From Candidatus Omnitrophota bacterium (lineage in GTDB: Bacteria; Omnitrophota; Gorgyraeia; Zapsychrales; JANLHA01), in assembly GCA_963662715.1 (NCBI GenBank), contig OY759724.1, forward strand, positions 332,670-396,669: 64,000 bases of DNA. Direction: 5' to 3'. Shown here in pieces: positions 607 to 41,304 of the stretch. The notes under the pieces were generated by a model. It worked only from the letters and a program-made list of their open reading frames with translations, was not told the DNA's origin and did no database searches. Made by a program: the position numbers and the translations under genes. Each line of letters begins with the position of its first letter. Position 1 is the stretch's first letter.

Positions 607-674
607 TTTAATAATTTTTAGTTTTCTCCATAAGAAATCCCTAAAACACTCACTTGGCGTTAAAATTCTAAACA

Positions 675-1622
675 TTAGTTTGTCACAACATTACGTTCAT
701 TTTTGCTTAAAAAATCAAGAGTTCTTAAATATTTATTCTTTATCCTTTCTTCAGTTTGGTTTCTTTGCATAGACAAAAGAGCCTTACGGCAAGGTTTTTG
801 CCCTTCTGTCGAGGGGCTATTCCCAATTATAAATGCAGGTAAGTTAATATAATCTGCCTCACTTTTAACTGTATATTTTTTAAGTGGAATTGGATAATAC
901 GCATAATTTAAACGTTCATCAGCAGGCAAACCAAGTTCACCCAATCTTTTAACGGCTGTTTCAGTTAACATAAAACCAATCCAATCTTGCAATTCGCTAA
1001 ACATATTAGCTTCATTTAGGGCTGCACCAAAGTACAAGCCACTTTCGTCGTCGGCGTAAAACTCTCCAAAGGACATGCTGCCTCGAACAGGAATCTTCTT
1101 TTTAATAAGTGACACAAAGAAATAACGGATAAATGAGTCTATTGCTCGATAGGCCAAATCAGTATCATCAATAGTGTAAATGATAAAAGAATCCGAGAAT
1201 GTTATCTTTTTGAGTAAATGGCTATCAAAAGAATCTTTCTTAAAATGGTCAATGCTGTCCGCATACACTTCAAATACTTTTGTCCAATATGATGTGTTAA
1301 TCAAATCTTTGATGCCTAATAAATCTAAATACGCAACCCAACGATTGATATTAACGTAAGATTTCAGAGCAACTCCTTCTAGGCCTTTTTTGCGCTTAGG
1401 GACAGACTCCCTTTTCATCCATAAATCAAACTCCTCGCTTGTTAACCCCATCCATTCTGCAATACTTTTCCCCATCCCATCTAAACCTTGTTGATACGCC
1501 AAGCGAAATGCTCCCCGGGCTTCGTCTTCATTCTTAAAATGCCCATTCTTTTGCCAGAATTTTGCTGTGCTAACACCCCATCCACCGATTTCGATATTTT
1601 GTTTCATTCCACGCTGGTTCAT
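675..1622 (-). CDS. Hypothetical protein, 315 aa, no recognisable motif. Lies between two SIR2-like genes.
   Basis: Long ORF co-oriented with both SIR2-like flanking genes, 69 bp and 230 bp away. AT-rich like the rest of the island. I see no family signature. Confidence 0.55.
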   Translation of the reverse strand: MNQRGMKQNIEIGGWGVSTAKFWQKNGHFKNEDEARGAFRLAYQQGLDGMGKSIAEWMGLTSEEFDLWMKRESVPKRKKGLEGVALKSYVNINRWVAYLDLLGIKDLINTSYWTKVFEVYADSIDHFKKDSFDSHLLKKITFSDSFIIYTIDDTDLAYRAIDSFIRYFFVSLIKKKIPVRGSMSFGEFYADDESGLYFGAALNEANMFSELQDWIGFMLTETAVKRLGELGLPADERLNYAYYPIPLKKYTVKSEADYINLPAFIIGNSPSTEGQKPCRKALLSMQRNQTEERIKNKYLRTLDFLSKNERNVVTN

Positions 1623-1851
1623 ATAGAAGGCCCGTAAATAGATTCACTTCCTCATTTTAGTTACTAAGAATGTATCTTCTCCAAAAACTCCCCCAAAGTC
1701 CTCAAATAGTGACCCCATCGGTCAGCCATAGGTTTTATAAGATGAGTTTTCATAGTAGACTGATTATACGTGAGATGGGTGGATAAATCAATAAGGAGGT
1801 CTTTAAGAAAAACAGGCAAATCCACCAATTATTCATTTTGAACTTACGGGA

Positions 1852-3891: not shown

Positions 3892-4216
3892 TTATGCTTT
3901 CCTTTTTCTGGTAACATCGAAAACTTTTTCCGTCTATTCCAAAATTTTTAAACCAGTTACCCAATTTCAACAATCCGTTTTAAGACGCTTTCCGTAGTCC
4001 TCCTGTAGCGCGTCCATCGCCCAGCCTATGATCCTCTTTTCAAGAAAAAAAATTGTTTGTTTTTATTCAGGCATCACTCATCATATTCTTTTTCATTCTT
4101 AGTAGTCTTTAAATGTTTGTTCTACTTTTAATAAAATTTTCTAAGTCTTTTGGATAAATCCTCCACTTGCCAATCTTTATTGCATTTAACCGTTTTGTCT
4201 AGATAAGGTCTCTTAT

Positions 4217-4276
4217 CTAGTCTTCGGTGACGCAGAGTTTTTCAACCACTTCTTTAACAGTGAGGTAGTTACGCAT
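4217..4276 (-). pseudogene. Remnant of an AlpA/excisionase-type HTH gene: 19 codons, then a stop
   Basis: The reverse strand reads ATG CGT AAC TAC CTC ACT GTT AAA GAA GTG GTT GAA AAA CTC TGC GTC ACC GAA GAC TAG, giving MRNYLTVKEVVEKLCVTED*. This is the typical start of phage/ICE excisionase-type HTH proteins (M..LLTVKEVAELLGVS), truncated. The surrounding 3892..5244 has no intact ORF. Confidence 0.25.
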
Positions 4277-5235
4277 GTCTTACATTGAGTTGACCTCGTT
4301 TTTTTGACAAATTTATCAAATTACTATTTATTCCTATTAAATTTTATTGTATGCTCGTTACTCTTATAAAGTCAATGGAATTCAAGTACTATATTGTTTT
4401 ATCTCTTCAAATTCCTGCATGAATTCTCTGAACCGTGCCAGTTGCAGACGTTCTTCATCTAGTCGTACTATGCAGTGAGTTTGCGTAGCGATAAGAATCT
4501 AAGGCTGACTGGATCATTCTTATTGCTTTTAAAAGAATCTTTAATCTGTTCGGGGAGAGCTAGTGTTCCGAGAATTCTTGCTATGCATGACTAGTCTTCT
4601 CCAGTGTAACCGCAAGTTCTCTAACGACGCTGTTTATGCCGTGTGCTTCTTTAATCCTCACGTAATATTCTGTTTTCTCAAGGGAAAACTATTCTAGGAG
4701 TCTTATGTGGGTTTGATACATATTTCAGACTCTTTTTTGATTGTATCAATGTGGCCTAAGTCTTCAGAGGGGGGCAGAGACGACAACACTACTTATGATT
4801 TTTATTAACGATGTAAAAAAAAATTCAACCCAATAGGTGCGTGACTGTGTGAAGAAACTTTTTTTGAGGTGCTGGATGAATTCAATCATATCTGATGGAG
4901 AAAGGAGTATCTTCCCTCCATCAGAAAATTGCTTTCCGTTTTGCGAAAAAACGACTTGTGTTACACAAGTACGCTGGTTGCAAAACGGGCACAACTGGGG
5001 TTAATCACTTCAGTAGAAACCGCACAGTTCTGAGCCATAATTACATGCTCTTTAACTTTCCTTAACATCTTAAAATTTACAAAATCACGGGAGGGAATCT
5101 ATTTCTATTCCACCACATTTCCACCACATAAAATCGATTCAAATTGAAAAAACGCGAATGTCATGGCTGACCATGGCTTGCAGTAACTTGTAATGTAAAT
5201 CATTGATTTATATAGAGAAATGATATTTTTGGCAC

Positions 5236-5264
5236 AAAATAATGGGGTATCTTGCGATACCCCA
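5236..5264 (-). terminator. Rho-independent terminator of ssrA
   Basis: Immediately after the tmRNA 3' end the minus strand reads GGGGTATC-GCAA-GATACCCC followed by ATTATTTTG. Confidence 0.5.
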
Positions 5265-5274
5265 AAACATAAAG

Positions 5275-5664
5275 TGGAGGTGCGGGGAATCGAACCCCGG
5301 TCCTTCAGCTGCTTTCCGTAAGCCTCTACATGCTTAGTCTGCCGTTTACAATCACCTGAAAATCTCCGGCAAACAGGATATCCTCAGGCTATCCTTCTTA
5401 AGTTTCGCCGTGGCCCCGAAGGCCCTGGCCACAGCTAGCCTGCTGAATGTCCTCTTAACAGCCCACAGGCCTGACGGTTAAAAGGGCCTCTCTTTTTTAT
5501 TAAGCGAGGACTGGTTCGCCAGCAAAAATCGGTTCTACGATTTCGTTGGCTTTAGCGAGAATAGATTCGCCATTTGTGTGTGCCCGGATGATTAACGAGG
5601 CCAACCAGGCATCCTCGGCATGCCACTTACAGTCTCTCAACTGAAGTCGAGACCAATCACCCCC
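5275..5664 (-). ncRNA. ssrA: tmRNA (transfer-messenger RNA, SsrA)
   Basis: The reverse complement starts GGGGGTGATTGGTCTCGAC and ends ...GGACCGGGGTTCGATTCCCCGCACCTCCA. That gives a 7-bp acceptor stem with a G3:U70 pair, a T-arm GGTTCGATTCC and discriminator A. The internal tag reading frame is ...GCC AAC GAA ATC GTA GAA CCG ATT TTT GCT GGC GAA CCA GTC CTC GCT TAA TAA. smpB lies immediately upstream on the same strand. Confidence 0.9.
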
Positions 5665-5693
5665 AAATCATGAACAATTCGAAAGTGTCTTTT

Positions 5694-5721
5694 ATTATAC
5701 AACAAAATATTTTTGAAACAA
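5694..5721 (-). promoter_or_regulatory. Putative sigma70-like ssrA promoter (-35 TTGTTT, 16-nt spacer, -10 TATAAT)
   Basis: The minus strand reads TTGTTTcaaaaatattttgttgTATAAT about 30 nt upstream of the mature tmRNA 5' end. tmRNA is processed from a precursor, so the longer distance is acceptable. Confidence 0.35.
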
Positions 5722-5760
5722 AATATTTGCTGACTCCCCTAATGTCATCCCTTCTTTTCA

Positions 5761-6222
5761 TCAGGTCTTACGCTTGACCACCTTTAACGACTGCCGCAAG
5801 GCCCGGTCAATGTCCCGCTTTTTCATGGCTTCCCTTTTATCATAAAGCCTTTTTCCGGTCCCTAAAGCCAGTTCCACCTTGACCAGGCCGCGGTTATTCA
5901 TATAAATTTTCGTCGGCACCAGGACCTTGCCCCGCTCTATCACCATAGAAGAAATTTTCTTTATCTCCCGCTTGTGCATCAACAGCCTTCTGGCGCGGTC
6001 AGGCTCTTCGTTCATATAGCTTGCTTCTTTATAAGGGTTGATATGCAGGCTGTAAAGGATCACTTCCCCGTTTTCGATCTTCGCAAAACTGTCTTTGAAG
6101 TTCACAAAACCCGCACGGACAGACTTCACTTCGCCCCCCTTCAACTCAATCCCGCATTCCCATGTCTGGGACAGGAAATAGTTATGATAAGCTTTTTTAT
6201 TTGTCGCCACAGGTTTTGCCAT
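5761..6222 (-). CDS. smpB: SsrA-binding protein SmpB
   Basis: 153 aa with strong similarity to SmpB (MAKPV...KKAYHNY...GIELKGGEVKS...LLMHKREI). Adjacent to ssrA. Confidence 0.9.
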   Translation of the reverse strand: MAKPVATNKKAYHNYFLSQTWECGIELKGGEVKSVRAGFVNFKDSFAKIENGEVILYSLHINPYKEASYMNEEPDRARRLLMHKREIKKISSMVIERGKVLVPTKIYMNNRGLVKVELALGTGKRLYDKREAMKKRDIDRALRQSLKVVKRKT

Positions 6223-6224
6223 AA

Positions 6225-7181
6225 TTAAGAGGGCCCCGCCAAAAAATTATAGATTGTTAAAACAAACGGGATTGTCAGAACACTCATAACAGACCCCCAA
6301 AAGATCCCCTGATTAACCAATTCGGAATCCACCTTAAAATAACGGGTCATCATGGATAAGGAAACGGCGCTGGGGACCGCGGCTTCGATAACAACAAGAA
6401 AACCAAAGCTGTACCCTATATGAAAAATCTTAACAACAGCCAAGGCCAGCAGCGGCAATACGATCAGTTTCCCGACAATAAGAAGAGAGATGTCTGCCTT
6501 CCGCCGCAGCTGAAGTTTTGTCTTGGCCAAGTTCCCCCCGACAACGATCATGGCCAAAGGAAGCGTGCAGCCGGAAAACATCTCCACCGGTTTTAATACT
6601 GTCTGCGGAATCCACCGGTGCCCCCCCAAGAAAATCAGGATCAATGTGCATATCGTCGTAATAAACGGCGGGTTCAGCAGCCGGGACCAGTAAATCTTCT
6701 TGTCATGCTCACTGGTCAGGAGCCAGACGCCGAGGGACCAGACGGCGAAATCAAACCCCATGATCAATAAAAAAATATTAACCGTCAGCTGATGCTGCAT
6801 TTTCCCCTCAAATAAAGACGCCACCAGCATTAAGGGAAAATACCCGTAATTCGCGAAACTCATCAGGGCCGTAAAATGATTTTTATTAGAGCACTGCGGA
6901 TGGAAAAGCAGAATGCCGCGGCTGACAACCCACCCGCTGAGAACCATCGCCAGACTCAAGGCAGGATACGCCCACCAGTTTGCGTATTCCTTAAAATCAA
7001 AATGCTGCGTGAGATGAAAAAAAATCATCTGCGGCAGAAACAGCTTAACCAGCAAGTTCGAAAGCGTATCCAAGCCCTGATCATCCAGGATAGCCCGCTT
7101 GACCAAAAAAAACCCCACACCCGCCATAAAAAGAATTTGCAGGGTCGCCAACAGTGTCGCCTGAAAAGTATCCATTAACAT
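6225..7181 (-). CDS. AEC-family (auxin efflux carrier / malate permease-like) membrane transporter
   Basis: 318-aa polytopic membrane protein with about 10 TM helices. The N-terminus MLMDTFQATLLATLQILFMAGVGFFLVKR is typical of the AEC/MleP family. Confidence 0.7.
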   Translation of the reverse strand: MLMDTFQATLLATLQILFMAGVGFFLVKRAILDDQGLDTLSNLLVKLFLPQMIFFHLTQHFDFKEYANWWAYPALSLAMVLSGWVVSRGILLFHPQCSNKNHFTALMSFANYGYFPLMLVASLFEGKMQHQLTVNIFLLIMGFDFAVWSLGVWLLTSEHDKKIYWSRLLNPPFITTICTLILIFLGGHRWIPQTVLKPVEMFSGCTLPLAMIVVGGNLAKTKLQLRRKADISLLIVGKLIVLPLLALAVVKIFHIGYSFGFLVVIEAAVPSAVSLSMMTRYFKVDSELVNQGIFWGSVMSVLTIPFVLTIYNFLAGPS

Positions 7182-7756: not shown

Positions 7757-9190
7757 ATGGACCATACTCAAACTCAACTTCTGATCATCGGGGCCGGCCC
7801 CGGCGGATATGTCGCTGCCTTTCACGCCGCTGATTCCGGCCTGAATGTTACTTTAATTGACCGCGAAAAAAATCCCGGAGGCGTTTGCCTCTTCCGCGGC
7901 TGCATCCCTTCCAAAGCTTTACTGCATGTGGCGCGCATCCTTTCCGACGCCAGGGACGCCAAAGCGTTTGGGGTAGAATTCCGCGAACCGGATATTCATC
8001 CGGAAATTGTCCGCAAATGGAAGAACAGCGTCGTTGATAAATTGACCGGGGGGCTGGGGCAGCTGTCCCGGCAGAGAAACATCAACTTTATCCAGGGAGA
8101 AGCTGCTTTTCTTGATTCTCAAAATGTCGAAGTCAAAACAGCTGACGGCACGTTGTCTCAAATCCATTTCGACCATGCTATCATCGCGACCGGGTCTCAG
8201 CCTGTCACCCTTCCCTTTGCCCCTGAGTCGCCGCGGGTCATGGACTCCACGGCGGCTTTGGAATTAGCTGAAATCCCGCCGAGACTTCTTGTTATCGGCG
8301 GAGGATATATCGGACTGGAACTGGGGTCGGTTTATGCCGAACTGGGCAGCACGGTATCTGTCGTAGAAATGACGCCGCAGCTCCTTCCGGGAGTCGATCC
8401 GGACTTAAGCATGATCCTGAAAAAAAGGCTCCGGCTGAAATTCGAGGCCATCAAATGTCATACCCGGGTCACAGGACTGCAGGACACGGGGTCGGCCGTC
8501 GAGGTGACTTTCGAAGACGCCAAGGGGCAGACAAATTCCGATTCATACGACAAAGTCCTTATCGCCATCGGCCGCAAACCGGACGCCTCCTCCCTGCGGC
8601 TGGAAAAAACAAAAGTCCGATTAACAGACCGCGGGTTTATTCAAATCAATGCCCAGCGCCGGACAGACGACCCCGCTATTTACGCGATCGGGGATGTCGC
8701 CGGGAACCCTATGCTGGCGCATAAAGCGTCTCACGAAGCCCGGGTGGCGGTGGACGCGATCCTCGGGAAGAACACCGCTTTCTCCCCGCAGGCCATCCCG
8801 GCCGTGGTCTTTACCGATCCGGAAATTGCCTGGTGCGGCCTAACGCAAGCCCAGGTGCAGGATCAAGGCCCGGACATCAAAATTCTAAAATTCCCCTGGG
8901 CGGCTTCCGGACGGGCTGTCACGTTAAACCGCACTGACGGGTTGACAAAGATTATGACAGACGCCCGGACAGGCCGCATCCTTGGTGTGGCTCTCGTTGG
9001 GACCGGGGTCGGAGAAATGATCGCGGAAGGGGTTCTGGCTGTCGAGATGGGAGCGGTTGCCGAAGATCTTATGCTGAGCATCCATCCCCATCCGACGCTA
9101 TCGGAAACGATGATGGAAGCCGCCGAAAGTTTTTTCGGGCAGAGCATGCATATTTACAAGCCGCCCCGGAAAAAGCAGGACCTCATTTAA
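7757..9190 (+). CDS. lpdA: Dihydrolipoyl dehydrogenase (E3 component)
   Basis: 477 aa. FAD-binding GAGPGGY, the redox disulfide region CLFRGCIPSK, the NAD-binding GGGYIG and a C-terminal dimerisation domain. Confidence 0.9.
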   Translation: MDHTQTQLLIIGAGPGGYVAAFHAADSGLNVTLIDREKNPGGVCLFRGCIPSKALLHVARILSDARDAKAFGVEFREPDIHPEIVRKWKNSVVDKLTGGLGQLSRQRNINFIQGEAAFLDSQNVEVKTADGTLSQIHFDHAIIATGSQPVTLPFAPESPRVMDSTAALELAEIPPRLLVIGGGYIGLELGSVYAELGSTVSVVEMTPQLLPGVDPDLSMILKKRLRLKFEAIKCHTRVTGLQDTGSAVEVTFEDAKGQTNSDSYDKVLIAIGRKPDASSLRLEKTKVRLTDRGFIQINAQRRTDDPAIYAIGDVAGNPMLAHKASHEARVAVDAILGKNTAFSPQAIPAVVFTDPEIAWCGLTQAQVQDQGPDIKILKFPWAASGRAVTLNRTDGLTKIMTDARTGRILGVALVGTGVGEMIAEGVLAVEMGAVAEDLMLSIHPHPTLSETMMEAAESFFGQSMHIYKPPRKKQDLI

Positions 9191-10188
9191 TTTTCTTCTA
9201 TCCGGGTTAATAATTGCTTCAATTCCGGGCCGAAAATTTTTGAAAACTCGATAGAACCCAGCTGGTTCAGATGCTGGGAATTATAGAAATACTTTTCCTG
9301 CCGCGCCATTTCTGCCGAAGAGTAATCCATAAAAACAATGTCCCGGCCGTCACTCAGTTTTCTATAGATGGCTCTCACTTCATCCAAATTGACAACAAAC
9401 TCGTTGAACTGATAATAAACCGGGGCATAAACAAAAAACAGCCGGATACGTTTCTGCCGGCACAGCTGAACAAGCTCATTCAGAGCGGCCTTCCCCTCCT
9501 CGGTCATTTGCCCTTTAAGGCCTTGCGGATAAAGCCTTTTAACGGTTTTGACATCTTCCTCCTTATTCCAGTCTATGTTCACCGGGCAATAACCTTTGTA
9601 ACAGTCAACCGTATCTTCCCGGCCGGTCAACCCCTGGACCGCATCGACCGTAAAGTCATGACTTAACAGGGCAAAGCTGTATAAAGGGAAATACCTGGCT
9701 AAGATAAAATGTTTCGAAATCCCGGAAAGGGTTTGATAAATCTCTTTTTCGTTCAAATAAGGGATAAACTGTCCCGGATTATACGCCCGGGGCTTACGAA
9801 GGGTATTGCGTCCCACCACCTGAACAATAGCTTCCGGCGGGCGGTTGTATTTCAGGTAGACTTTTAACCGGGCCACCTGCAGGGCCAGGGAATTTCCCAG
9901 CAGGGCGATATTATAGACATCTTTATTCAGGTCCTCTTCCAGCAGAGAAACGTCCATGCCGGCTTGCGCCCGGGAAGCTCCAGTTATCAGGATGTCGGCA
10001 TTAATTTCTCCCCGGACAATACGGTTCCATTCCCCGAAATCGCCGCTTCTCCTCGCGTAAAACCCTTCCATCAAATAAGCCTGGACAGCCAGACTGAGGA
10101 TGACAAATATAACGGGAAAAGCGATCATGTCTCTTGCATTCTGATTCATGGCGTTAAAATTGGAAATAAATAAATTCGATCCCTTCAA
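9187..10188 (-). CDS. DltD/AlgJ-like membrane-anchored protein, the probable partner of the adjacent MBOAT acyltransferase
   Basis: 333 aa with an N-terminal TM helix and an extracytoplasmic domain. It overlaps the MBOAT gene's 3' end by 35 nt, which suggests translational coupling. An alternative start at M14 (10149) lies 4 nt after the MBOAT stop. The family assignment rests on context and weak resemblance. Confidence 0.4.
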   Translation of the reverse strand: MKGSNLFISNFNAMNQNARDMIAFPVIFVILSLAVQAYLMEGFYARRSGDFGEWNRIVRGEINADILITGASRAQAGMDVSLLEEDLNKDVYNIALLGNSLALQVARLKVYLKYNRPPEAIVQVVGRNTLRKPRAYNPGQFIPYLNEKEIYQTLSGISKHFILARYFPLYSFALLSHDFTVDAVQGLTGREDTVDCYKGYCPVNIDWNKEEDVKTVKRLYPQGLKGQMTEEGKAALNELVQLCRQKRIRLFFVYAPVYYQFNEFVVNLDEVRAIYRKLSDGRDIVFMDYSSAEMARQEKYFYNSQHLNQLGSIEFSKIFGPELKQLLTRIEEN

Positions 10189-11587
10189 ATTTCCCCAGAA
10201 AAATAATGCTGAAAAGTACCGCGTAATAAAAAATCCAGCGTGCGAACTTAGGCATCCTTAACGTCAGGTCTCTCAGCCGCCAGCGGCTCTGCAGCAAATG
10301 CACGATAATGAGCAGAGCTATCAAGGCCAAAGATACGGTAAAATCAAAAGTTTTATACGGGAAAGCGTCGTTGCCCCCCGGGCTGAACATATTTATTATA
10401 AGAGTTTTCACATCACGCAGCGACTGGGCTCTAAAAAATATCCATGAAAAAAGCACCAGGTGGTACGTGATGGCGATCCGAAGCATTTTGTACAGGGCCG
10501 GGACTCTCTCCAAATTCAGGAAAGACACCGCCCGGCGGCGCCAGCCTTCCGTCCAGACAGAAAAAAGCATATAAAATCCGTGAAGCGCCCCCCAGACAAC
10601 AAACGTCCAGTTCGCGCCGTGCCAAAGACCGCTGATAACAAAAACGAAAATAAGATTAAGGTACCACCGCTGTACCGGGACGCGGTTGCCGCCGAGAGGA
10701 ATGTACAAATAGTCCCGGAACCAGGTCGACAAAGAAATATGCCAGCGCCTCCAGAACTCGGCAATGGATACGGCAAAATAAGGGCGCCGGAAATTCTCCA
10801 TGATTTCAAAGCCCATGATCCTGGCGGCTCCGATAGCAATATCCGAATAGCCGGAGAAATCGCAATAAATTTGAAAAGCAAAAAACGTCGTGGCGATGTA
10901 AACCGTCGCGCCATGCCATTGCGCGGGATGCCCGTAAACAAAATTCACAAAAAAGGCCAAGCGGTCCGCGATGACGATCTTTTTAAAGAATCCCCATAAC
11001 ATAAGTTTCAGGCCGTCGCACATCCTGGGATAGTCGAAATCATGTTTTTTAAAAAACTGCGGCAACAAGTGGCCGGCCCGCTCAATCGGGCCTGCGACCA
11101 GCTGCGGGAAGAAAGATACGTATAAGGCAAAAACCCCTAAATGCCTTTGAGGCTCCAGTCTTTTACGGTAGACATCAATCGTATAGCTTAGCGTCTGAAA
11201 CGTATAAAAGGATATCCCTAAAGGAAGCAGGACATTCAGATGAGGGAGATACGCGGACAAACCGAGGGTCTTGAACAAGGCGTTAAAACTGGACGAGAAG
11301 AAATTAAAATATTTAAAAACCGCCAGAATGCCCAAATTCGTCATAAGGCTCAGGACAAGAAACATCCGGCGTTTCACAGGGTTTTCCGTCCGCCCCATCT
11401 GCCATCCGGCAGTGTAATCCACCAAGGTTGAAACCACCAGTAAAAGAACATACGGGATGTTCCAGAACATATAAAACACGTAACTCGCCAGAAGAAGCCA
11501 GGCCCAGCGGAAACGGAAAGGGAAAAGGAAATAAAGGGTAACAACGACAGGAAAAAATATTAAAAATTCTAGAGAATTAAAAAGCAT
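10154..11587 (-). CDS. MBOAT-family membrane-bound O-acyltransferase (AlgI/DltB/PatA-like)
   Basis: 477 aa, polytopic. Conserved MBOAT histidine region WRRWHISLSTWFRDYLYIPLGGNR and the C-terminal ...GLWHGANW motif. Confidence 0.8.
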   Translation of the reverse strand: MLFNSLEFLIFFPVVVTLYFLFPFRFRWAWLLLASYVFYMFWNIPYVLLLVVSTLVDYTAGWQMGRTENPVKRRMFLVLSLMTNLGILAVFKYFNFFSSSFNALFKTLGLSAYLPHLNVLLPLGISFYTFQTLSYTIDVYRKRLEPQRHLGVFALYVSFFPQLVAGPIERAGHLLPQFFKKHDFDYPRMCDGLKLMLWGFFKKIVIADRLAFFVNFVYGHPAQWHGATVYIATTFFAFQIYCDFSGYSDIAIGAARIMGFEIMENFRRPYFAVSIAEFWRRWHISLSTWFRDYLYIPLGGNRVPVQRWYLNLIFVFVISGLWHGANWTFVVWGALHGFYMLFSVWTEGWRRRAVSFLNLERVPALYKMLRIAITYHLVLFSWIFFRAQSLRDVKTLIINMFSPGGNDAFPYKTFDFTVSLALIALLIIVHLLQSRWRLRDLTLRMPKFARWIFYYAVLFSIIFLGKFEGIEFIYFQF

Positions 11588-11755: not shown

Positions 11756-14700
11756 TTAATTATAATTCAGCATGCTGAGCTTATCATGTTCGTCATCGAA
11801 AAAGAACTGAATATCCGACTCCGCCGGTTCCTGCTGAGGCTTCCGGTCTGCGCCTTTTTCCGCCTCTGTGCCCCGGCCCCGGGTTGTCCCTCGGGCCGGA
11901 ACCGCATCCTCGGCACTCATGCCCAGCAGCATCGGCAGGTTGGGAATCGGCGTAATGTTGATAATAACCGGCAAGAACCCTTCTATATTCATATTCTGAA
12001 TCGGCTGTTGCTGAACAGGTAAAGGAACACCGCTTCCGTCCCGTCTGATCTGCAGGTTCAAAAGCGCCGGATTAAGATCGATACCACCAAGCGGCGAAGA
12101 AGTCGCCGGCGCGGCTCCTATATTCGCTGCCAGCCGTTGAACGGTATTGATAACCTGGCCCACGCCGCCCTTACTGTTCTTTTCTGTTCTCATAAGTTTG
12201 CTGAGGTCACGTTTCGCCTGTTTGGTCGAGATGCTGCCATCAGCGACAGAGACCAGAAGCTCCCTTGTCCCTTTATTTTTCAGATTAAATTTCGTCATAG
12301 CCTTGTCAACGGCTTCGATCGGAGAAGAAACGGCCGCGCTGGCGAGTTCAATGACTTCCGCTGTTGCCAACAGGTTTTGCACGGCAGATTCTTCATTTAC
12401 CCTGTCAAGGACTTCCGTAATGTCCCGGTCGACCCAATCTCCAGGTAATGTCACAGCAACATCAATCCCGGCCTCCTGCCATTGAAAAGCGACACCGGTT
12501 TCATCGGCCCTTACCCCGTCATAACGCAAAACCAAGTTTGCGCCTTCGACAAAAAAGTAGGTCCTCTTCCAAGGGAGGTCCTCCCCTTCATCAAATTCCG
12601 GCAAATTGGTTTTTACGGTCAGCTGTTCAGACAGCTTAAAGGGCACGGACAAATCGGTCAAACGTGTCTCCAGCTGACTCATGGTGTTGATCACAGATTC
12701 TAAGCGCGTCGCCTCTTCGATCGGGATGTCCCGGGCTAATTCAATCTGCAGCTCTTTGGCCGGGAGAATCTCTCCGACCTGCCGTAGAACATCCGCGACC
12801 TGATTCCGGACTGTCTCTAGCCTGGCGCGGTCCTTTTCCACCTCTATTTCAACCTGGGCCAAAAGCTGTTCGGCCTGGGTTAACAAGTCAGCCACCTTTT
12901 CTTTTTCATTCGCGGCAAACTGAATAGGAGAAGAGGCCCCCAACGACATGAAGTCAATTAACGGGAACCGTTCCGGACGCCCGGCATCAAGCATGAGCAG
13001 CTGCAAATCCCGGTTCTCATCCTCCGTCACCCGGACAGCCTCATTAAACACCCGGGCGGCCATAACTAATATTCTCTCAGCCAGAGCCCTGTCAACACCG
13101 TCAATTTCCATTAATTTATTTTCAGCTTCTGTTCTCCGGTCAGCCTTCTCTAATTCTATCGCCTCCTGGATGGCCTGGTAAGCATCGGCCGTCACAAGGT
13201 TATAGCCTAAGGCCAAACTGGCCGGAAGCAGCCTGAACATGGCCTCTCCGACAGGGTAAGCTCCGTCCATCAGCTTGATGCTGAGGATATGGGCGGCTTT
13301 GGCCAAAGGAGGATTCTGTTCAATAAAGACGATCTGATTGGCCAATAAAGCCCGCATAGCGGCATGAATCCAGCCGTTCTGGGCCCCGTTGACCTGCTTA
13401 TCAATATCCACGATTTGATTAATAAGCTGTACGTTCTCTTCGGCTAACCCAATCGTTGAGAGTATCGGGGAAGACACGCCTAAATTCGTATAATCCAAGA
13501 ACTCGATATACTTCGCCTCAACCCCGGTAAGAGCTACGGCAAAAGGCCCGTCTGTAGGAGTCCAGGTTAACAAGACATCCTGAAGAGCAAAAGGATTAGC
13601 ATACTCAAAATCCCCTTGTATTTCCCGGGATACCAGCACAGTTGCATCATCCGGAGCCCTTAATTCCAGACGTGTTGTACTATCAGGCTCATGGACATTA
13701 ACATACAAAACATTTCCGTCATGCTTGAATAAGATCCTTCTTGAAGCGCCCTGATTATTGTCAAGGTTCCGTCCCTCGCTGACCAGAGGCTCTCCCAGCA
13801 CGGCAAAATTCCCCAGCTGGCTTGCTGCTTCATAATTCTCAACTTCGTTATATTTCGTTCTTGCCCGCATCACGGCCGCCTGCCATTCCCCTGCCGAAGC
13901 AGCCGTCTCCAAGGCCTCGGCCAGGACAAACGGACTCTCTGACATCCAGTCGCCGGAAAGGGTTAATTCTTTTATATCCGTCTTGTCGTCCCTGGCGCGT
14001 AAAACAAGCCGGGTCGTCCCTTGTGTATGGTCCCGGTGAGCATAAAGGATACGTCCGTCATGCCCGAACAGGGCTCTCAAAGACGGGCCGTCATTTTCTG
14101 CCCAATTCTGTCCTTCCCGGACCATTGTTTTAACCGGAGAAGCAGCCAACAACGACTCTCCGATATAGGGGTCATGCTGAGCATGCAGGTCTCTGCCTGC
14201 CTCCATATTAGGGATTCCATTCTCGTCTGTCCTCAGCAAGGCAGCTCCCAGACCGGTTCCAGGCCCGATATAAAGAATGCGGGCATTGTCGATTCTTTGC
14301 CCGGACAACTCATATAATGCTGTGGCCCCGGCAAAAGCATCGTTCATCCACACCACGTTATAAGGTTCTCCTAATAAACCCTGCAACGTGCTGGCAGGGT
14401 TCACACCGAAAAATTGCGGGCGGTTGGGCCAGCTTTCTTGAGCGATAGCGCCATCAGCCTCTTTTTTCCCCGGATGCCCGACCCCGATTTCAAAGGAAAC
14501 CTCGTATTGTTCAGTCTCTAATTCATTCCGTAAAGTATTAATAAGAGGAAGCAGTGCGCTGTAATATTCTTCCGGTTGAACTTGTGCGATATCACGGTCT
14601 AATACAAACCGCTGCATCCCTCCTACAAATTGCACAAAATTTCCGTTTTCATCAAACTGGATCCCCTGCATCTTGGCAGAGGTCCCGCCCACATCAACAC

Positions 14701-17700
14701 CGATCACAACCTTGTTCCGTCTAAGGTCTTGATCAACCAGCAATGCTGCTCCTAATATCCCTGCTTCTTCCGCAACCATTTGATTTTCAGCTGAAAGGAT
14801 CGGCAGTATCGTAACGCCGGTTCCCAACACGCTTCGGATCTTCTGTTCCAGGATATTGCGGATAAAAGGATTATTGCTAATAGCCCCGCCGATCTCAATA
14901 ACGTTAATGCCTTTCCACTCATCTTCGATGGCTCTTAAAGCTTCTCCATCCTGACTCCGCAAGGCCCCTTCCATCAGCAGAGACGCAAACTGCGCATAAA
15001 CACCCCCGACAAATTCCAGCACCTGAGTGATAACATCTGCGGCCTCGGAATCGGGATAAGTTTGCAAGACCCAGCCCATAAACCTGGTATCCAGATTCCC
15101 CTGATATTCGGCCAACAGGTCCGTAAACAGGTCCTTGTTTTCCTTAAGGAGCTGTTCATTCACCTGGGCGAACATCCGGTTAATCGCCGTAGTCGAAGAA
15201 AGGTTCTCCGTTGTTAATCTTTCTGTTGTAAAAGACACCAGCACTTCACGCCCGTCCCGCAGGGAAATGGCTACAGGGATGGCTTCTAACGGCGAAGAAC
15301 CCAAGTTATTTTTTAAAGCGACAATATCTTTCACGGAATAGGGCTTCATGAAAATATCCGTAAAAAGGCCGCCTTTTAAACCTGTCGCGGCATCAACCTG
15401 CTGAAGCTCCTCCAGATTCGGGGCAAAACCCGTCGTGAGGATGATGGGGAGATCTCTTACCGCCCGGATCTCTCTGGCAAGTTGTTCGCCGGTCATCTGA
15501 GGCATGACGAAATCTGTCACCACCAGATCAATATCCGGATTCTCGTTAAACACTCTCAAGCCTTCTTCTCCGTTATCGGCGCGAATGACTTCCGCTTCGC
15601 CGAAAACCGCACCGAAGAGCTGCGCAGCCACATCTCCGACCATCTCTTCATCGTCCACAACAAGAATTTTCTTGATGGGCGTCGAAACCACGGCAGCAGT
15701 GGTGGTGGTAATTTTATCTTTTAAAGCGGTTAACTGCTCAAACTCATAAGGTTTATCCAGGACTTCATCAAATAATCCGCCCTTTAAACCGGTCGCTTCA
15801 TCCACGGCCGTTAATGTGTCGTCTATCGTCCCTGACAACAAGACAACCGGGACATTGTTTCCTGCGGCCCTCAACTCACGGGTGAACTGATCTCCGGTCA
15901 TAACAGGCATTTGCAAATCCGTTACAACCAGGTCAAAATCCCCGGACTCCCGGAAGGTCTGAAGGGCTTCCTGCCCGTTGTCTGCGGTAACGACTTCCAC
16001 GTCCCCGAACACGTCTTTCAAATCTTCGCTCACCAGGAGCAAAATGGATTTTGAATCATCGACCAGGAGGATCTTCTGAATCGGAGAAGCCACCGGGGCC
16101 GCTCTCAAGGAAGACTCTACCTGCGAGATAAACGCCTGCAAGTCTTCTGAATATTTGTTCGCCTGAATGATTCCCGACAATATTTCACTGACTTCTGTCT
16201 CTGTCGCCTGCGCGGCGGCAACATAAGCCCCTTCTATCTCAAAGAATACTTCGGCCACGATTTCCCCTGTCCTCCCATCATATAATTTATGAGAAATCTG
16301 GTTGGCCCCAGCAACCTCTTCCCCGATAACCATTACAGGGTTATTATCCCGCATAACCAATATGGTACGGGCAAAGGATTGCGGATGATAAGTCCGGATG
16401 ATACCCGTCTGCCCCTGGGCCATGGTCAACAATTCCAGCCCCGTTGTATCGATGACCGGGGATGAAGCAGGCGGCGTTGTCCTTACGAGCTCTAAGGCTC
16501 TAGCCGCATCCTCTTCCGTAATTCCAATCAAATCATTACGGAAAGAAACCCCGGCGCTTCTTTCTGCATCTTCCAAGCTCCCTGCCGTAAAATTGAACTT
16601 CCGCAGATCCTCCAGCCGAAAAGTAAAATACTGCGATATTTGGGCCGCTGTCGGAACCCGCCCTTGACTTGCTTCTATATCCATCCATTGCCGAAACAAC
16701 TCAATATCATCCCTATCCACCTCATATTCGCCCGTTACCATTCTCTCTATGGCAGCCGGCAACCCCGTCATCCATCCCCGATATCTCGGATGACTCAAGA
16801 TATACTTCTCTACCCCTACGGGCAGAAACGTTATGTCTTTTTCCGGGTCGGAGGAAAAATGCTCCCGGATATTCGTGGAGGATGTCCCGAACAAATTAAT
16901 ATGTCCTATCGGCCTTATAAATCCTCTTGCCATGTATTCCTTCATTTGAGCCACTTCCACCGGCATAGGCAGACTTTCAAATAATTCCCTGAAGTTGAAG
17001 GCCAACATCATGTCGATATTATTTCTTTGAAGATGGTCGGCCAACTCCTCTTTCATCCGGTCCATCTTTAAGACCGTATCCGGCTGAGGATGATCCCCGT
17101 CCATTTTAGGAGTCCTGTACCCATCGGTATCCATGTCGCTTGACGGGGCATAAACATGCATATGGTCCCCGCCGACCGCTGTATAGACCCACGTTGTCTT
17201 TCCTGTTCTGCCCCCGTTGATTTCAATCAGTTTCTTGTACTTCGTTTCGCCATCCGCCTCTGAACCGTTCAAAACTTTTGACAAGACAAGAAGTCCGTCA
17301 AAAAGATCCACCCATTCCTGCGCCATTTCATCGCGCTCCTCAAAAGTCGGGTTCAGCCCCTTCTTCTGCTTGCGGTAATCAAAGGCATGGTTGACGACAC
17401 CAACCTGGGAAATTTTCAATTGCGCCATGGCCCGCAAAACCGGTTCGAACTGGCCGAAATGCAGAGGATTCAACGCTGAGGCATAAACACCGACGATCGT
17501 ATCCCCGGTATCTGTTTCCTGCCCCGTAAACTCCGCGTCCTGTTCACTCCAGCGCACCTGCTGCAATTGCATCTCCCCGTTCATCATATGGACGCCGATT
17601 TCCCATAAAGATTCCTTCACCTTTCGTGTCCATTCACCGGCCAATTGCTCGTTTCGACCCGGTTCCTGACGCAGACTCCGCCTCACAAGATTATCAAAGA

Positions 17701-20476
17701 CCTGTTCCACGTCCACCCGGATCTCTTTGTTCACGTTCGGAAAAATGCTTTTGGCATATTCATATTCCTTAACCCGGTTCTCTTCATGCGTCCCTTGATT
17801 CGCGGTGTAGACCAAAGAACGCTCAAGCATCCGGTAAGGGTTCCCTTTTTCCTCTATCATGCGCCTGAACCCGCTTTCCATAACGATCTTCTTCCGTCCC
17901 GCCTCGACAACAAGGGCCATACCAAACGTGACATCTGTCCCGCTGTCGATTTCCTCTACCGTGGTAATATCGATCTGGCGTCTTTCTTTATTTAAAAAGT
18001 ACGTACGGATTTCACTCAGTTCTGCCAACTGAACTTCCCGGCGTTCCTGCCCGGCCTGTTCATAAGCCCATACCTGATTCAGAACTTCTCCCATACCCAT
18101 CCGCTGATTGTAGCTGTTGCCGAACATCACTCCGTCCCGGTACGGGATCCCGTCCGGGTTGATTCCGTCCTCTAATTCAACTAAAATATCTCTCCAATCC
18201 CGTTTCGTTTCATCACCGGCCCTGGCTTTCATCATCATAATCGGCGTAATACCATACCCGAAAAACTCATGGCTCGTTGTGCCTTCAGCTTCAGAATAAA
18301 CGCTCACCAACTGAAACAGGTCATCAAAATTTATTGTTCTGGTCCTTCCTGTCTCCGTCTCCACAACATTATCCTCTTTGGCGTGGATAAAATTCGCCAA
18401 TGAATCTTCCCGGATACTCCGCGGCGCCCCCAGCGGTGAGGAGACGGCCGTCTGATCAAGCAGCATGAGCTCGTCTTCGTCAAGCTGCTGCAGCAGGGCC
18501 GTTTCCGCATCTGACAGGGCCTGGGAAACCTCCGGCCCCTTTTGAAGAAGCTGTGTGGCGGCCTCTATTAAAACGCCCAACTGTTCCGGCACCTTGGCGA
18601 AAGTGTCGTCCGGCAACGCGTCGCTTCTTATCAAATGCAGCAAACTTAAAATCTTCCGCTCTCTTCGCAGTTCACTCCTGGCCACAGCCCGGTTTTCATC
18701 AGCCAGAGCTGACCGGTCTCCGTAATTTTGGGCCGCTTTCTCCAACCCGGCGATATCCTCTTGGTATAACTGCATAATTTCATCGGGAATGGTAACCGCA
18801 CCCCCACGCGCCCTCACAATAGTTTCCAAAGCTTCAAACACGTTCATCGGCGCTACGCCTGTCATCAACTCTTCCAAACGCCCTTCTTCCTGCGGCGCTA
18901 AGGTTGATTTAAGAATATCGGACATAATAAGGGCGAGACGCTTTGTTCTGGTTCTGGTAAAGGTCTTGGAAGCATATTCCAGCAAACGCCGGCTCTCCTC
19001 GGTCAGGTTCTGGAAAGATTCTATTTTCACCAGGTCATTAAGAGATACTCCCGCCTGAATCTTTTCGGCAATATCCGCACTCACGCGGCCGATCAGGGCC
19101 AACCCGTCGTCAACGGTGATCCGCTGGGCCGCGGCTGATGTGACATACCCCAGATACTGGCGGGCTAACTGCGTGTTCTGTTCGATCACATCGGCAAAAT
19201 TCGATATAGGGGAAGCCACAATAGCGCTCTGCGCCGACAATGTTTCAGAAGGGTTCTCCGCCAGGATAGCCGCCACCTGCACCACCGGGCTTGAAACACT
19301 CATCCCGGCATCGATCCTTGCTCTTAAAGGAGACGACGGCGGGACATTACGCAGTTCGACGGACGTGATCGAGCTGGAGACCTCGGAAGCATCAACCCCG
19401 CCGGAAAAATATTTTCGCGGGATGACTTTTTTCGTCGACATATCATAATCTTCCCGGATATAGTCATAAACGCCTTTTTTAAATGCCGCCAGGTACTGTT
19501 CATAAATTTTCTGTTTAATTTCCTTGTCGTTAACGTCCACGCCTTTCACCTTGCCTTTGTTGACATAGACTTGTCCAAGGAGACTCGCTCTTAAATTCTC
19601 TTTATACCAGGTCGCTAAAATCAGGGAATTGAAAATCTGCCGCAGATTAGCAAAATTCTTGCCCTCATTGACTTCCTTTTCTATTTCCGGCAACAAAACT
19701 TCCCGGACAACATCCGAAGAAACCTTGCTAAGAGTCTTTACATAATCCTGGGTGATCTTTGTGGTTCCTAATTTTTTATTATCCAGGTTCCTTTCCAAAG
19801 CTAAGTAATCCTCTTCCAGCATAACTTTCAGATGACTGTCAACCACAAAAGCGCTGCCGTTATGCTCAACAACCAAGGCGTCTTCCGGGATAATCCATAT
19901 TTTGTTGAACGTATTGATCGGAATATTTGTCGTACCATATTCTTTTTGTGCGCGGTCATAGACTCTTTGCCAAAATTCCTGGCCGAGATCATCTTCCGGA
20001 TAGATCATCGAGGCCGTTAACTGCTTCAGCATATAGTCCTGAGCCAGGAGGTCGCGGCCCATTTCTGTCATGCTGAAACCTTCGGGAACAATACGGTCGC
20101 TTTCATAAGGAGAAAGGTTAACCCACAAATCTTTTTCCGGGATCGTCAGGGCGGCGAGAAAATATTTAATGAGTTTGCTGGATTCTGCTTCGAGTTCTTC
20201 TCCGGTCAATTGGTCGTTTCCGGAATCGATAATAAAATCGAATTTTAAAGGATTTTCCGGGTCGATCTTCACCCCCTTCAAACAGGCCGGGGCATAAATA
20301 TCGCTTTTCATAACCATGGCCCCGGGCATCGGCAGATCCAAAACCGTCGGGGCTGGATCAGCCGCGGATACCGGCGCGGGTGGAATGATGAGGCTTATCA
20401 GAAATGAATAACTGATAAACGAGACTAAAATACGATACGACCAATGATCACGACTATTCCGGAAATAGTTAAACAT
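11756..20476 (-). CDS. Giant (2906 aa) multidomain protein. It has an N-terminal signal peptide or anchor, a TagD-like cytidylyltransferase module, an ASKHA/ROK-like kinase module, two receiver domains, an internal duplication and recurrent SSP junction motifs.
   Basis: Uninterrupted 8.7-kb ORF with a strong RBS (AGGAGGG, 11 nt upstream of the ATG at 20476). N-terminus: MFNYFRNSRDHW-[ILVSFISYSFLISLII]-PPAPVSA|ADP. aa ~993-1050 GVYASALNPLHFGQF...VGVVNHAFDYRKQKKG aligns with TagD TYGTFDLLHWGH...VVAISTDEFNLQKQKK. aa ~1860-2100 carries IGGAISN...AGILGAALL, then VVIGVDVGGTSAK and ILYIGPGTGLGAALL (ROK/ASKHA motifs). aa 1466-1588 and 1601-1723 are two REC domains with the DD, D, T and K residues all present. 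Confidence 0.85.
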   Translation of the reverse strand: MFNYFRNSRDHWSYRILVSFISYSFLISLIIPPAPVSAADPAPTVLDLPMPGAMVMKSDIYAPACLKGVKIDPENPLKFDFIIDSGNDQLTGEELEAESSKLIKYFLAALTIPEKDLWVNLSPYESDRIVPEGFSMTEMGRDLLAQDYMLKQLTASMIYPEDDLGQEFWQRVYDRAQKEYGTTNIPINTFNKIWIIPEDALVVEHNGSAFVVDSHLKVMLEEDYLALERNLDNKKLGTTKITQDYVKTLSKVSSDVVREVLLPEIEKEVNEGKNFANLRQIFNSLILATWYKENLRASLLGQVYVNKGKVKGVDVNDKEIKQKIYEQYLAAFKKGVYDYIREDYDMSTKKVIPRKYFSGGVDASEVSSSITSVELRNVPPSSPLRARIDAGMSVSSPVVQVAAILAENPSETLSAQSAIVASPISNFADVIEQNTQLARQYLGYVTSAAAQRITVDDGLALIGRVSADIAEKIQAGVSLNDLVKIESFQNLTEESRRLLEYASKTFTRTRTKRLALIMSDILKSTLAPQEEGRLEELMTGVAPMNVFEALETIVRARGGAVTIPDEIMQLYQEDIAGLEKAAQNYGDRSALADENRAVARSELRRERKILSLLHLIRSDALPDDTFAKVPEQLGVLIEAATQLLQKGPEVSQALSDAETALLQQLDEDELMLLDQTAVSSPLGAPRSIREDSLANFIHAKEDNVVETETGRTRTINFDDLFQLVSVYSEAEGTTSHEFFGYGITPIMMMKARAGDETKRDWRDILVELEDGINPDGIPYRDGVMFGNSYNQRMGMGEVLNQVWAYEQAGQERREVQLAELSEIRTYFLNKERRQIDITTVEEIDSGTDVTFGMALVVEAGRKKIVMESGFRRMIEEKGNPYRMLERSLVYTANQGTHEENRVKEYEYAKSIFPNVNKEIRVDVEQVFDNLVRRSLRQEPGRNEQLAGEWTRKVKESLWEIGVHMMNGEMQLQQVRWSEQDAEFTGQETDTGDTIVGVYASALNPLHFGQFEPVLRAMAQLKISQVGVVNHAFDYRKQKKGLNPTFEERDEMAQEWVDLFDGLLVLSKVLNGSEADGETKYKKLIEINGGRTGKTTWVYTAVGGDHMHVYAPSSDMDTDGYRTPKMDGDHPQPDTVLKMDRMKEELADHLQRNNIDMMLAFNFRELFESLPMPVEVAQMKEYMARGFIRPIGHINLFGTSSTNIREHFSSDPEKDITFLPVGVEKYILSHPRYRGWMTGLPAAIERMVTGEYEVDRDDIELFRQWMDIEASQGRVPTAAQISQYFTFRLEDLRKFNFTAGSLEDAERSAGVSFRNDLIGITEEDAARALELVRTTPPASSPVIDTTGLELLTMAQGQTGIIRTYHPQSFARTILVMRDNNPVMVIGEEVAGANQISHKLYDGRTGEIVAEVFFEIEGAYVAAAQATETEVSEILSGIIQANKYSEDLQAFISQVESSLRAAPVASPIQKILLVDDSKSILLLVSEDLKDVFGDVEVVTADNGQEALQTFRESGDFDLVVTDLQMPVMTGDQFTRELRAAGNNVPVVLLSGTIDDTLTAVDEATGLKGGLFDEVLDKPYEFEQLTALKDKITTTTAAVVSTPIKKILVVDDEEMVGDVAAQLFGAVFGEAEVIRADNGEEGLRVFNENPDIDLVVTDFVMPQMTGEQLAREIRAVRDLPIILTTGFAPNLEELQQVDAATGLKGGLFTDIFMKPYSVKDIVALKNNLGSSPLEAIPVAISLRDGREVLVSFTTERLTTENLSSTTAINRMFAQVNEQLLKENKDLFTDLLAEYQGNLDTRFMGWVLQTYPDSEAADVITQVLEFVGGVYAQFASLLMEGALRSQDGEALRAIEDEWKGINVIEIGGAISNNPFIRNILEQKIRSVLGTGVTILPILSAENQMVAEEAGILGAALLVDQDLRRNKVVIGVDVGGTSAKMQGIQFDENGNFVQFVGGMQRFVLDRDIAQVQPEEYYSALLPLINTLRNELETEQYEVSFEIGVGHPGKKEADGAIAQESWPNRPQFFGVNPASTLQGLLGEPYNVVWMNDAFAGATALYELSGQRIDNARILYIGPGTGLGAALLRTDENGIPNMEAGRDLHAQHDPYIGESLLAASPVKTMVREGQNWAENDGPSLRALFGHDGRILYAHRDHTQGTTRLVLRARDDKTDIKELTLSGDWMSESPFVLAEALETAASAGEWQAAVMRARTKYNEVENYEAASQLGNFAVLGEPLVSEGRNLDNNQGASRRILFKHDGNVLYVNVHEPDSTTRLELRAPDDATVLVSREIQGDFEYANPFALQDVLLTWTPTDGPFAVALTGVEAKYIEFLDYTNLGVSSPILSTIGLAEENVQLINQIVDIDKQVNGAQNGWIHAAMRALLANQIVFIEQNPPLAKAAHILSIKLMDGAYPVGEAMFRLLPASLALGYNLVTADAYQAIQEAIELEKADRRTEAENKLMEIDGVDRALAERILVMAARVFNEAVRVTEDENRDLQLLMLDAGRPERFPLIDFMSLGASSPIQFAANEKEKVADLLTQAEQLLAQVEIEVEKDRARLETVRNQVADVLRQVGEILPAKELQIELARDIPIEEATRLESVINTMSQLETRLTDLSVPFKLSEQLTVKTNLPEFDEGEDLPWKRTYFFVEGANLVLRYDGVRADETGVAFQWQEAGIDVAVTLPGDWVDRDITEVLDRVNEESAVQNLLATAEVIELASAAVSSPIEAVDKAMTKFNLKNKGTRELLVSVADGSISTKQAKRDLSKLMRTEKNSKGGVGQVINTVQRLAANIGAAPATSSPLGGIDLNPALLNLQIRRDGSGVPLPVQQQPIQNMNIEGFLPVIINITPIPNLPMLLGMSAEDAVPARGTTRGRGTEAEKGADRKPQQEPAESDIQFFFDDEHDKLSMLNYN

Positions 20477-41213: not shown

Positions 41214-41304
41214 AGATAATAAGAAAGGAACGTCGTTTCACTTTTATCAAGCAAAAGACTCCCGGCACAGGTGTTGAATCCTATCTTATGAAGGCGAGCT
41301 GCAT

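Follow-up and report, generated by a model that had tools for sequence, protein, structure and literature searches.

Very long proteins that carry enzyme domains have already been catalogued in the bacterial phylum Omnitrophota. A June 2026 preprint that surveys Omnitrophota proteins of 10,000 amino acids (aa) or more describes a 'multi-enzyme metabolic' class in which receiver (REC) domains, present in 105 proteins, occur alongside ROK kinases and sugar-metabolism domains, with signal peptides or transmembrane helices in 94% of the proteins (10.64898/2026.06.07.730766), and a 2023 preprint on the Archaeovorins places glycolytic domains, by prediction, outside the cell (10.1101/2023.11.21.568195). 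Here, we describe a giant protein of 2,906 aa encoded on a 64-kb stretch of DNA from a Candidatus Omnitrophota bacterium (GCA_963662715.1, contig OY759724.1, positions 332,670 to 396,669; hereafter the window), in the middle of which two REC domains lie in tandem. This protein resembles the multi-enzyme giants and Archaeovorins in its phylum, in the joining of REC, ROK and sugar-metabolism domains in one chain, in the frequent signal peptides, and in the same acknowledged puzzle of cytoplasm-type enzymes that are predicted to be extracellular; the proteins described there, however, have many transmembrane helices and a minimum length of 10,000-30,000 aa, whereas the protein described here has no internal transmembrane segment. 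The C39/SecA-type domains of Archaeovorin-like giants were not found in it by a Pfam scan. Receivers are normally a marker of cytoplasmic signalling; here they appear intact and under selection, as exchangeable cassettes of proteins that look exported, have been purged of cysteine and also contain glycolytic and other ATP-dependent enzymes.

The protein is read as one open frame and consists of an extended signal peptide, a family-defining N-terminal domain (the N-cap), 11 cassettes separated by short junction peptides, and a C-terminal peptide (the C-cap) (Table 1). An initial annotation of the window had placed two tandem REC domains at positions 15308-16081 (aa 1466-1723), each with the acidic pair, acceptor Asp, Thr/Ser and Lys of canonical receivers. 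Both domains were recovered with Pfam, in which PF00072 (Response_reg) is the sole significant family of the giant protein, matching over two stretches with 101.2 bits (cut-off, 30.2 bits; E-value 4.9e-29). Response-regulator models of NCBIfam match the REC1 and REC2 halves, and the solved receivers RR468, CheY, PhoP and YycF match both halves with E-values of about 1e-10 to 1e-11. Alignment to Escherichia coli CheY with MAFFT located every pocket residue: D1473/D1474 (D12/D13 of CheY), D1520 (D57), S1548 (T87) and K1575-P1576 (K109-P110) in REC1, and D1608/D1609, D1655, T1682 and K1711-P1712 in REC2. The strings quoted in the initial annotation are exact, and its residue numbers are off by about two. 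By sequence, both cassettes are true receivers whose phospho-acceptor pocket is intact.

A hidden Markov model built from CheY and the two RECs was applied to 120 relatives of the giant protein (P0001-P0120, the first being the protein itself) and gave 21 REC matches in 12 of them, of which the 19 above 20 bits were analysed. Eighteen of these 19 cassettes retain the acidic pair together with the acceptor Asp and the Ser/Thr, and most retain the Lys. Within the clade formed by P0001-P0006, the RECs are 45-56% identical to this pair, yet all pocket residues and the KP(Y/F) motif are invariant; RECs of the clade also carry a private insertion, D(E/A)xxGLK(G/S)G(L/I)F, ahead of the Lys. This pattern of conservation indicates purifying selection, presumably on phosphorylation chemistry. 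Because the catalytic residues are kept so widely, and without change across a divergent clade, the two domains are unlikely to be pseudo-receivers, and the suggestion in the initial annotation that they might be such domains used structurally fits poorly.

REC1 and REC2 each occupy exactly one cassette, with 131 and 125 aa between junctions, respectively. Strand beta-1 begins four residues past the junction motif in both, and the end of a junction precedes strand beta-1 by 4-12 residues in 15 of the 19 family RECs. The domains resemble CheY-like and tandem-REC proteins in their membership of PF00072, the five pocket residues, the KP(Y/F) motif and a length of ~125 aa; unlike CheY-like receivers, however, they lie in mid-chain of a long signal-peptide protein without a nearby kinase or a classical output domain. 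Outside the family, the nearest relatives returned by a word-indexed search with the RECs were small tandem-REC proteins of ~30% identity; the same search also missed the known orthologs among P0001-P0006 and therefore says little about the phosphodonor. No HisKA, HATPase_c or HPt domain was detected by Pfam scan in any window open reading frame (ORF) of at least 150 aa, in agreement with the earlier statement that no histidine kinase or HPt gene is adjacent, and no such gene was present at the locus of the positional ortholog P0004 either.

The N-terminal segment is signal peptide-like, as had been noted, and the paradox of receivers that stand behind a signal peptide without a nearby kinase is real and extends family-wide. 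In the giant protein, an n-region of 15 aa with three basic residues and one acidic residue is followed by the h-region ILVSFISYSFLISLII and then by PPAPVSA/A. Residues 16-34 are the sole strong hydrophobic segment, and no internal transmembrane segment was found in the chain; a weak hydrophobic stretch near the C-terminus would at most give an N-in/bulk-out/C-in topology. The signal layout is common to 98 of the 101 scorable family proteins, with an n-region of ~15 aa (median net charge +3) that is unusually constant in length and sequence, an h-region of ~16 residues, Pro-Pro and an AxA-type site (xYAQ, xSAQ); an invariant LNLPxPG sits six to ten residues past this site. The n-region resembles in this respect the extended signal peptides that very large type-V-secreted proteins carry. 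The basic n-region, single hydrophobic segment, Pro-Pro and AxA-type site predict a cleavable Sec signal that would direct the chain outwards.

The cysteine content of the family is consistent with exported proteins. The giant protein has a single Cys (C65) in its 2,906 aa, whereas Cys makes up 1.33% of the residues encoded by the other 49 ORFs of the window (binomial P = 5e-16). Among the 297,399 residues of the 120 relatives there are 172 Cys; 85 of these occur in the first 45 residues, a normal frequency of 1.6%, and 87 in the remaining ~292,000 residues (0.03%). Depletion of the mature chain is thus roughly 50-fold and spares the signal peptides, whose normal Cys content therefore serves as an internal control. 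Exported proteins are known to exclude cysteine selectively (PMC2823432), and the confinement of the depletion to the mature chain points to a probable extracytoplasmic passage. Together with the cleavable-type Sec signal, the depletion appears to point outwards, and the N-in/C-in anchor with a cytoplasmic bulk that was offered in the initial annotation is a poor fit. In the five proteins inspected for this purpose, most of the surviving Cys stand in catalytic motifs (SCTTN of GAPDH, KxCGH of isocitrate lyase and CGN of PPDK). The retention of catalytic Cys despite the purge suggests that the cargo is active and that its catalysis is under selection.

A 3.36-Mb NCBI/ENA contig encodes the identical protein, according to a database search that also yielded more than 1,800 relatives. 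Every named relative belongs to the Omnitrophota, and the relatives share just 12-18% of the query. The layout is fixed in the 120 inspected, which have a conserved N-terminal region of ~375 residues, a variable middle and a conserved C-terminal peptide. A profile of the N-cap matched 8,268 representatives at 50% identity, 6,622 of them with E-values up to 1e-30, and always at residues ~30-365. At least 581 N-cap loci were found in species-representative genomes, all of them Omnitrophota metagenome-assembled genomes (MAGs) or MAGs mislabelled 'Planctomycetales', and up to eight N-cap paralogs occur in one MAG among the best 80 loci. At the level of profiles and motifs, the arrangement of cap, cassettes and cap is common to thousands of Omnitrophota proteins.

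Two kinds of apparent family member were rejected. Short N-cap proteins (420-673 aa), considered as minimal members, have no C-cap and look truncated, and stand-alone C-cap proteins, considered as evidence for a sorting tag of general use, are pieces of giant genes frameshifted in long-read assemblies. At two loci (L086 and L087), giant genes are broken into many small ORFs on the same strand in long-read metagenome assemblies, and one spurious 'small C-cap protein' has an apparent signal peptide, which calls for caution in censuses of the family.

The N-cap matched nothing in Pfam (E-values up to 1), NCBIfam or PDB sequences, and the C-cap nothing in Pfam, NCBIfam or PDB sequences. An AlphaFold2 model of the N-cap is of moderate quality (predicted local distance difference test, 67; predicted template modelling score, pTM, 0.68) and shows a long beta-hairpin and long helices. 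The C-cap (~57 aa) is recognised by a simple regular expression in 116 of the 120 family proteins, with the consensus GGI(D/N)LNPxxLxLQIKRDGNGxPLPxxQPIxxMxIxGFxPVIINxTPxxxLPxLLG and, behind it, an acidic tail that varies. On its own the C-cap is unfolded in the AlphaFold2 model (pTM 0.21), with hardly any secondary structure; this failure to fold alone makes it look like a peptide for docking or sorting, not an autonomous domain.

The cassettes are bounded by junction peptides of the form [AVGTSP][SAT][ST]P[ILV], mostly xSSP[ILV], of which the giant protein has 13 copies compared to 0.25 expected from shuffles, while none occurs in the other ORFs of the window (16,234 aa). These motifs coincide with module borders. 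Because the codons differ between copies and include non-start codons (those for the residue that follows Pro are GTC, GTT, TTA, CTT, ATA, ATC and others), selection appears to act on the junction peptide. Two other explanations of the junctions were ruled out: DNA-level recombination repeats, since codons vary between copies, and, for the SSP-type junctions, internal translation starts, since many codons there cannot start. Other family members have alternative junctions, namely D-x-A-M-[LTVMA], ESPDA[AV]V and DPAA[IV]G, and the SSP and xAM types are almost mutually exclusive between proteins. The junctions thus look lineage-specific, as though a separate recognition factor served each lineage.

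Between the caps, the middle of the giant protein holds a NadD-like module, the two RECs, a ROK-like kinase module and several cassettes without a recognisable family. The NadD-like half of cassette M3 has HFGQ in place of HxGH and a SSTNIR motif, and its profile matches are weak (PDB NadD 1kam, E = 0.013, and 1yul, E = 0.13; TIGR00482, E = 0.0075). M3 also occurs in P0007-P0010, P0012, P0014, P0025 and P0038, distant xAM-type members included. Matches of the ROK-like cassette M7 are weak but mutually consistent, with Glucokinase and Hydantoinase_A in Pfam (below its threshold) and gluconokinase, polyphosphate-glucose phosphotransferase and allose kinase in NCBIfam (E-values of 3e-4 to 2e-3). 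Neither M3 nor M7 has a direct PDB sequence match; their matches are to profiles only, and weak. The cargo of the relatives includes enzymes of glycolysis and sugar metabolism (PGK, GPI, enolase, TPI, GAPDH, PGM/PMM, UGPase and glycogen enzymes) as well as PEP synthase/PPDK, isocitrate lyase, malate synthase, PEPCK, GGDEF, RelA/SpoT-type HD and REC modules. Cassette content varies even among close relatives: P0004 (2,049 aa) has kept the REC pair and is without M3, M7 and M8, and P0002 has M7 and M9 in inverted order. Cassettes of ~600 aa are duplicated exactly within P0002 (a nucleotidyltransferase-like module) and P0003 (a UGPase module), and cassette duplication inside these genes is therefore very recent.

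A periplasmic or extracellular workplace is implausible for this cargo, because kinases, nucleotidyltransferases, glycolytic enzymes and receivers need ATP or phosphodonors. Two readings are left: delivery into another cell, or a wrong topology prediction for what would be a membrane-tethered cytoplasmic scaffold. We tentatively favour export of active cargo, with the cytoplasm of a host or prey cell to which the bacterium is attached as its most likely workplace, although this falls somewhat short of an even bet; its main advantages over the scaffold are the cysteine signature and the conservation of a cleavable-type signal. Under export, Sec would carry the protein out, and the Cys-free state would be kept for crossing, or folding along, an oxidising extracytoplasmic route. 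The caps would serve targeting, anchoring or translocation, and the junction peptides would be recognition or cleavage sites that differ from lineage to lineage. The cargo, including the REC pair, would act where ATP and phosphodonors exist; the pair may take phosphoryl groups from host kinases or acetyl phosphate, and may be a phosphate sink or decoy, or a switch for neighbouring cargo modules. Omnitrophota have been inferred to be host-dependent or predatory, and delivery into another cell fits their inferred epibiotic, predatory or parasitic lifestyle (PMC10066038). The fully specified version, in which the protein is delivered into another cell with the caps as translocation or anchoring device, is cleaved at its junctions (xSSP[ILV], D-x-A-M, ESPDAAV, DPAAIG) and places the REC pair as sink, decoy or switch inside the victim, is distinctly doubtful.

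Several points weigh against export. The signal peptide was called by rule-based inspection rather than by SignalP or DeepTMHMM, and the step of delivery into another cell is one that we purely infer. To our knowledge, there is no established precedent for the export of ATP-, NTP- or CoA-dependent enzymes or of receivers. In the loci inspected, no secretion-system, TpsB-like, protease or kinase partner is conserved beside the family genes beyond this ortholog group. Foldseek searches of PDB and BFVD with the N-cap model gave no significant match; the top non-significant PDB matches include four alpha-pore-forming toxins of the ClyA family (MakA, MakE, SmhA and ClyA), at E-values of 0.3-3 and template modelling scores of about 0.13-0.17, which makes them a lead and no evidence of membrane activity. 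Finally, the cargo mix, with its sequential sugar-phosphate and glycogen enzymes, would be sensible as a cytoplasmic metabolon.

This last point belongs to the strongest rival, in which the N-terminal segment is uncleaved or unused for export and the cassettes form a membrane-tethered metabolon or signalling hub in the bacterium's own cytoplasm. The REC pair would then receive phosphoryl groups from kinase modules of other giants or from orphan kinases whose genes lie in other parts of the 3.36-Mb genome, and would regulate the adjacent NadD-like and ROK-like modules. Every recognisable cargo needs ATP, NTP, CoA or phosphodonors, the REC pocket is under apparent selection, and fusing enzymes that act consecutively in a pathway is a well-known means of channelling. 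For Omnitrophota giants that have no signal peptide, the 2026 preprint assigns REC and sugar-metabolism domains to the cytoplasmic face, and it counts HATPase_c in 136 long proteins; however, it concedes that giants with both a signal peptide and transmembrane helices contradict an intracellular reading (10.64898/2026.06.07.730766). In the family described here, the signal features predict outward translocation, no second transmembrane segment returns the chain, and a cytoplasmic scaffold leaves the cysteine depletion, with its sparing of the signal peptide, unexplained. We regard the scaffold as possible, though on the unlikely side.

Next in line stands a polyprotein precursor, which would be compatible with either compartment and overlaps with both export and the scaffold: a lineage-specific protease would cut at the junctions and release the cassettes singly, with the RECs acting as CheY-like single-domain regulators. 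Cleavage of Omnitrophota giants has been proposed earlier, the cleavage points being unknown then (10.1101/2023.11.21.568195). The junction peptides are short, their conservation is one of peptide sequence and they fall exactly at domain borders, and their type changes between lineages as if they co-evolved with a recogniser. The same motifs may equally be docking, modification or plain linker signatures, however, and no protease is conserved in cis or adjacent at the loci inspected, the M48 peptidase being syntenic in this ortholog group only. We consider a polyprotein unlikely.

It is improbable that the cassettes are catalytically idle folds reused as structural or binding modules at the surface or in the periplasm. 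The substitution of HFGQ for HxGH in the NadD-like module, the sub-threshold score of the ROK-like module and the several cassettes without a recognisable family would suit such a role, but the invariant REC catalytic residues of the P0001-P0006 clade and the catalytic Cys that outlast an otherwise near-total purge do not. An assembly or gene-calling artefact that fused separate genes has next to no chance of being the explanation: although these are metagenome data and long-read assemblies do fragment such genes, the frame is open over 8.7 kb, the protein is identical in NCBI and ENA, syntenic orthologs exist in independent assemblies, and thousands of relatives have the same layout.

At the locus of P0004, the positional ortholog, the gene order PRTase-Maf-M48-DUF192-giant-MBOAT-unknown is shared with the window, the MBOAT gene and that for a protein of ~330 aa lying at 14378-16792 of this ortholog locus (L001); distant family members are without these two neighbours. 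MBOATs acylate extracytoplasmic acceptors, and the eukaryotic GOAT acylates a Ser in GSSF. GSSF resembles the [GA]xSSP[ILV] junctions, which we mention as speculation only. The window is otherwise ordinary diderm housekeeping DNA, with genes for BamA, Skp, LpxA/C/D/I, LptF/G, ClpC-McsB, RadA, DnaB, tRNA synthetases and ribosomal proteins.

Table 1. Coordinates of the giant gene, its modules and other features in the 64-kb window
Feature	Position	Strand	Remark
Giant ORF, 2,906 aa: signal peptide, N-cap, 11 cassettes, C-cap	11756..20476	-	one open frame, 8.7 kb
Signal peptide, extended Sec-type, aa 1-38	20363..20476	-	basic n-region, h-region, PP, VSA/A
N-cap, aa 39-375	19352..20362	-	family-defining domain
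NadD-like nucleotidyltransferase half of cassette M3, aa 953-1316	16529..17620	-	weak matches
Junction VASPI, aa 1462-1466	16079..16093	-	directly upstream of REC1
REC1 cassette, aa 1467-1596	15689..16078	-	
Junction VSTPI, aa 1597-1601	15674..15688	-	separates REC1 from REC2
REC2 cassette, aa 1602-1725	15302..15673	-	
Junction GSSPL, aa 1726-1730	15287..15301	-	downstream of REC2
Cassette M7, aa 1731-2110, divergent ROK/ASKHA-type sugar-kinase-like (VIGVDVGGTSAK)	14147..15286	-	weak matches
C-cap, aa 2797-2865, begins GGIDLNPALLNLQIRRDGSGVPLPVQQQPIQNMNIEGFLPVIINITPIPNLPMLLG	11882..12088	-	regular expression and alignment
MBOAT acyltransferase, downstream of giant gene	10154-11587	-	syntenic at ortholog locus
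333-aa gene without known family, downstream of MBOAT gene	9187-10188	-	syntenic at ortholog locus
Low-GC block	1-6300		
315-aa ORF without known family	675-1622	-	
SIR2-like and TPR protein	1852-3891	-	PADLOC ThsA/SIR2 defence models, E about 1e-10
tmRNA	5272-5664	-	
SmpB	5761-6222	-	
RadA-ClpC-McsB-UVR-motif protein cluster	39840-45290		
LpxI	49971-50789		
LpxC-dehydratase fusion, 471 aa	51803-53218		
Omp85 protein	55024-57426		five-POTRA, BamA-like

Three other features of the window were observed. A block of low GC content (0.37-0.41, about 0.49 elsewhere) adjoins tmRNA and SmpB, contains the SIR2-like and TPR protein and the 315-aa ORF, and is a candidate defence island inserted at tmRNA. 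A cluster encodes RadA, ClpC, McsB (ATP:guanido phosphotransferase) and a McsA-like UVR-motif protein with 4.7% Cys, in a diderm organism; Firmicutes are the best-known bearers of such an arrangement of the McsB arginine kinase with Clp. One ORF joins LpxC to a FabA/FabZ-like dehydratase, and LpxI, LpxA-like and LpxD genes adjoin it.

Either a large, phylum-wide family defies the usual rules of topology prediction, or ultra-small bacteria with a predatory or parasitic lifestyle send functional metabolic and signalling modules to the outside. In both cases, Omnitrophota genomes would have to be read differently, because metabolic reconstructions currently count such cassettes as ordinary cytoplasmic enzymes. 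The junction peptides are concrete candidate processing sites in Omnitrophota multi-domain proteins and can be tested with existing metaproteomes.

Compared with the literature, RECs in long Omnitrophota proteins are already known at catalogue level, whereas the cassette layout and the evidence on compartment appear to be new. Term searches found no mention of linkers in the 2023 and 2026 preprints, nor of cysteine or cleavage in the 2026 preprint, and no description of the caps, junction motifs or cysteine depletion was found in the searchable literature. Viral and bacterial polyproteins likewise have domains parted by short conserved junction peptides; however, no protease cassette was identified in the giant protein, and its junctions are candidate cleavage sites only.

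Two-partner-secretion (TPS) exoproteins, CdiA and polymorphic toxins have an extended signal peptide, a conserved N-terminal domain and a very long, Cys-poor passenger, and short peptides such as VENN mark the borders of swappable modules in polymorphic exoproteins. The giant protein would work like these in its extended signal, conserved N-terminus, Cys-poor chain and border motifs, but it is without a Haemagg_act domain, a beta-helix prediction or a TpsB neighbour, and its cargo is metabolic and signalling rather than toxic. No Omp85/ShlB-type gene is adjacent; the Omp85 protein of the window lies 35 kb off. MARTX toxins, which have no sequence or fold similarity to the giant protein, use type I secretion without a Sec signal and have glycine-rich repeats, an internal cysteine protease domain and toxin effectors, whereas the giant protein has a Sec-type signal and a single Cys, and neither RTX-type repeats nor a cysteine protease domain in Pfam or NCBIfam. 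In MARTX toxins, conserved ends flank a strain-variable mosaic of effectors that is released by inter-domain processing after delivery into the target cell, and the giant protein, with conserved termini around a mosaic interior, may work in a like manner.

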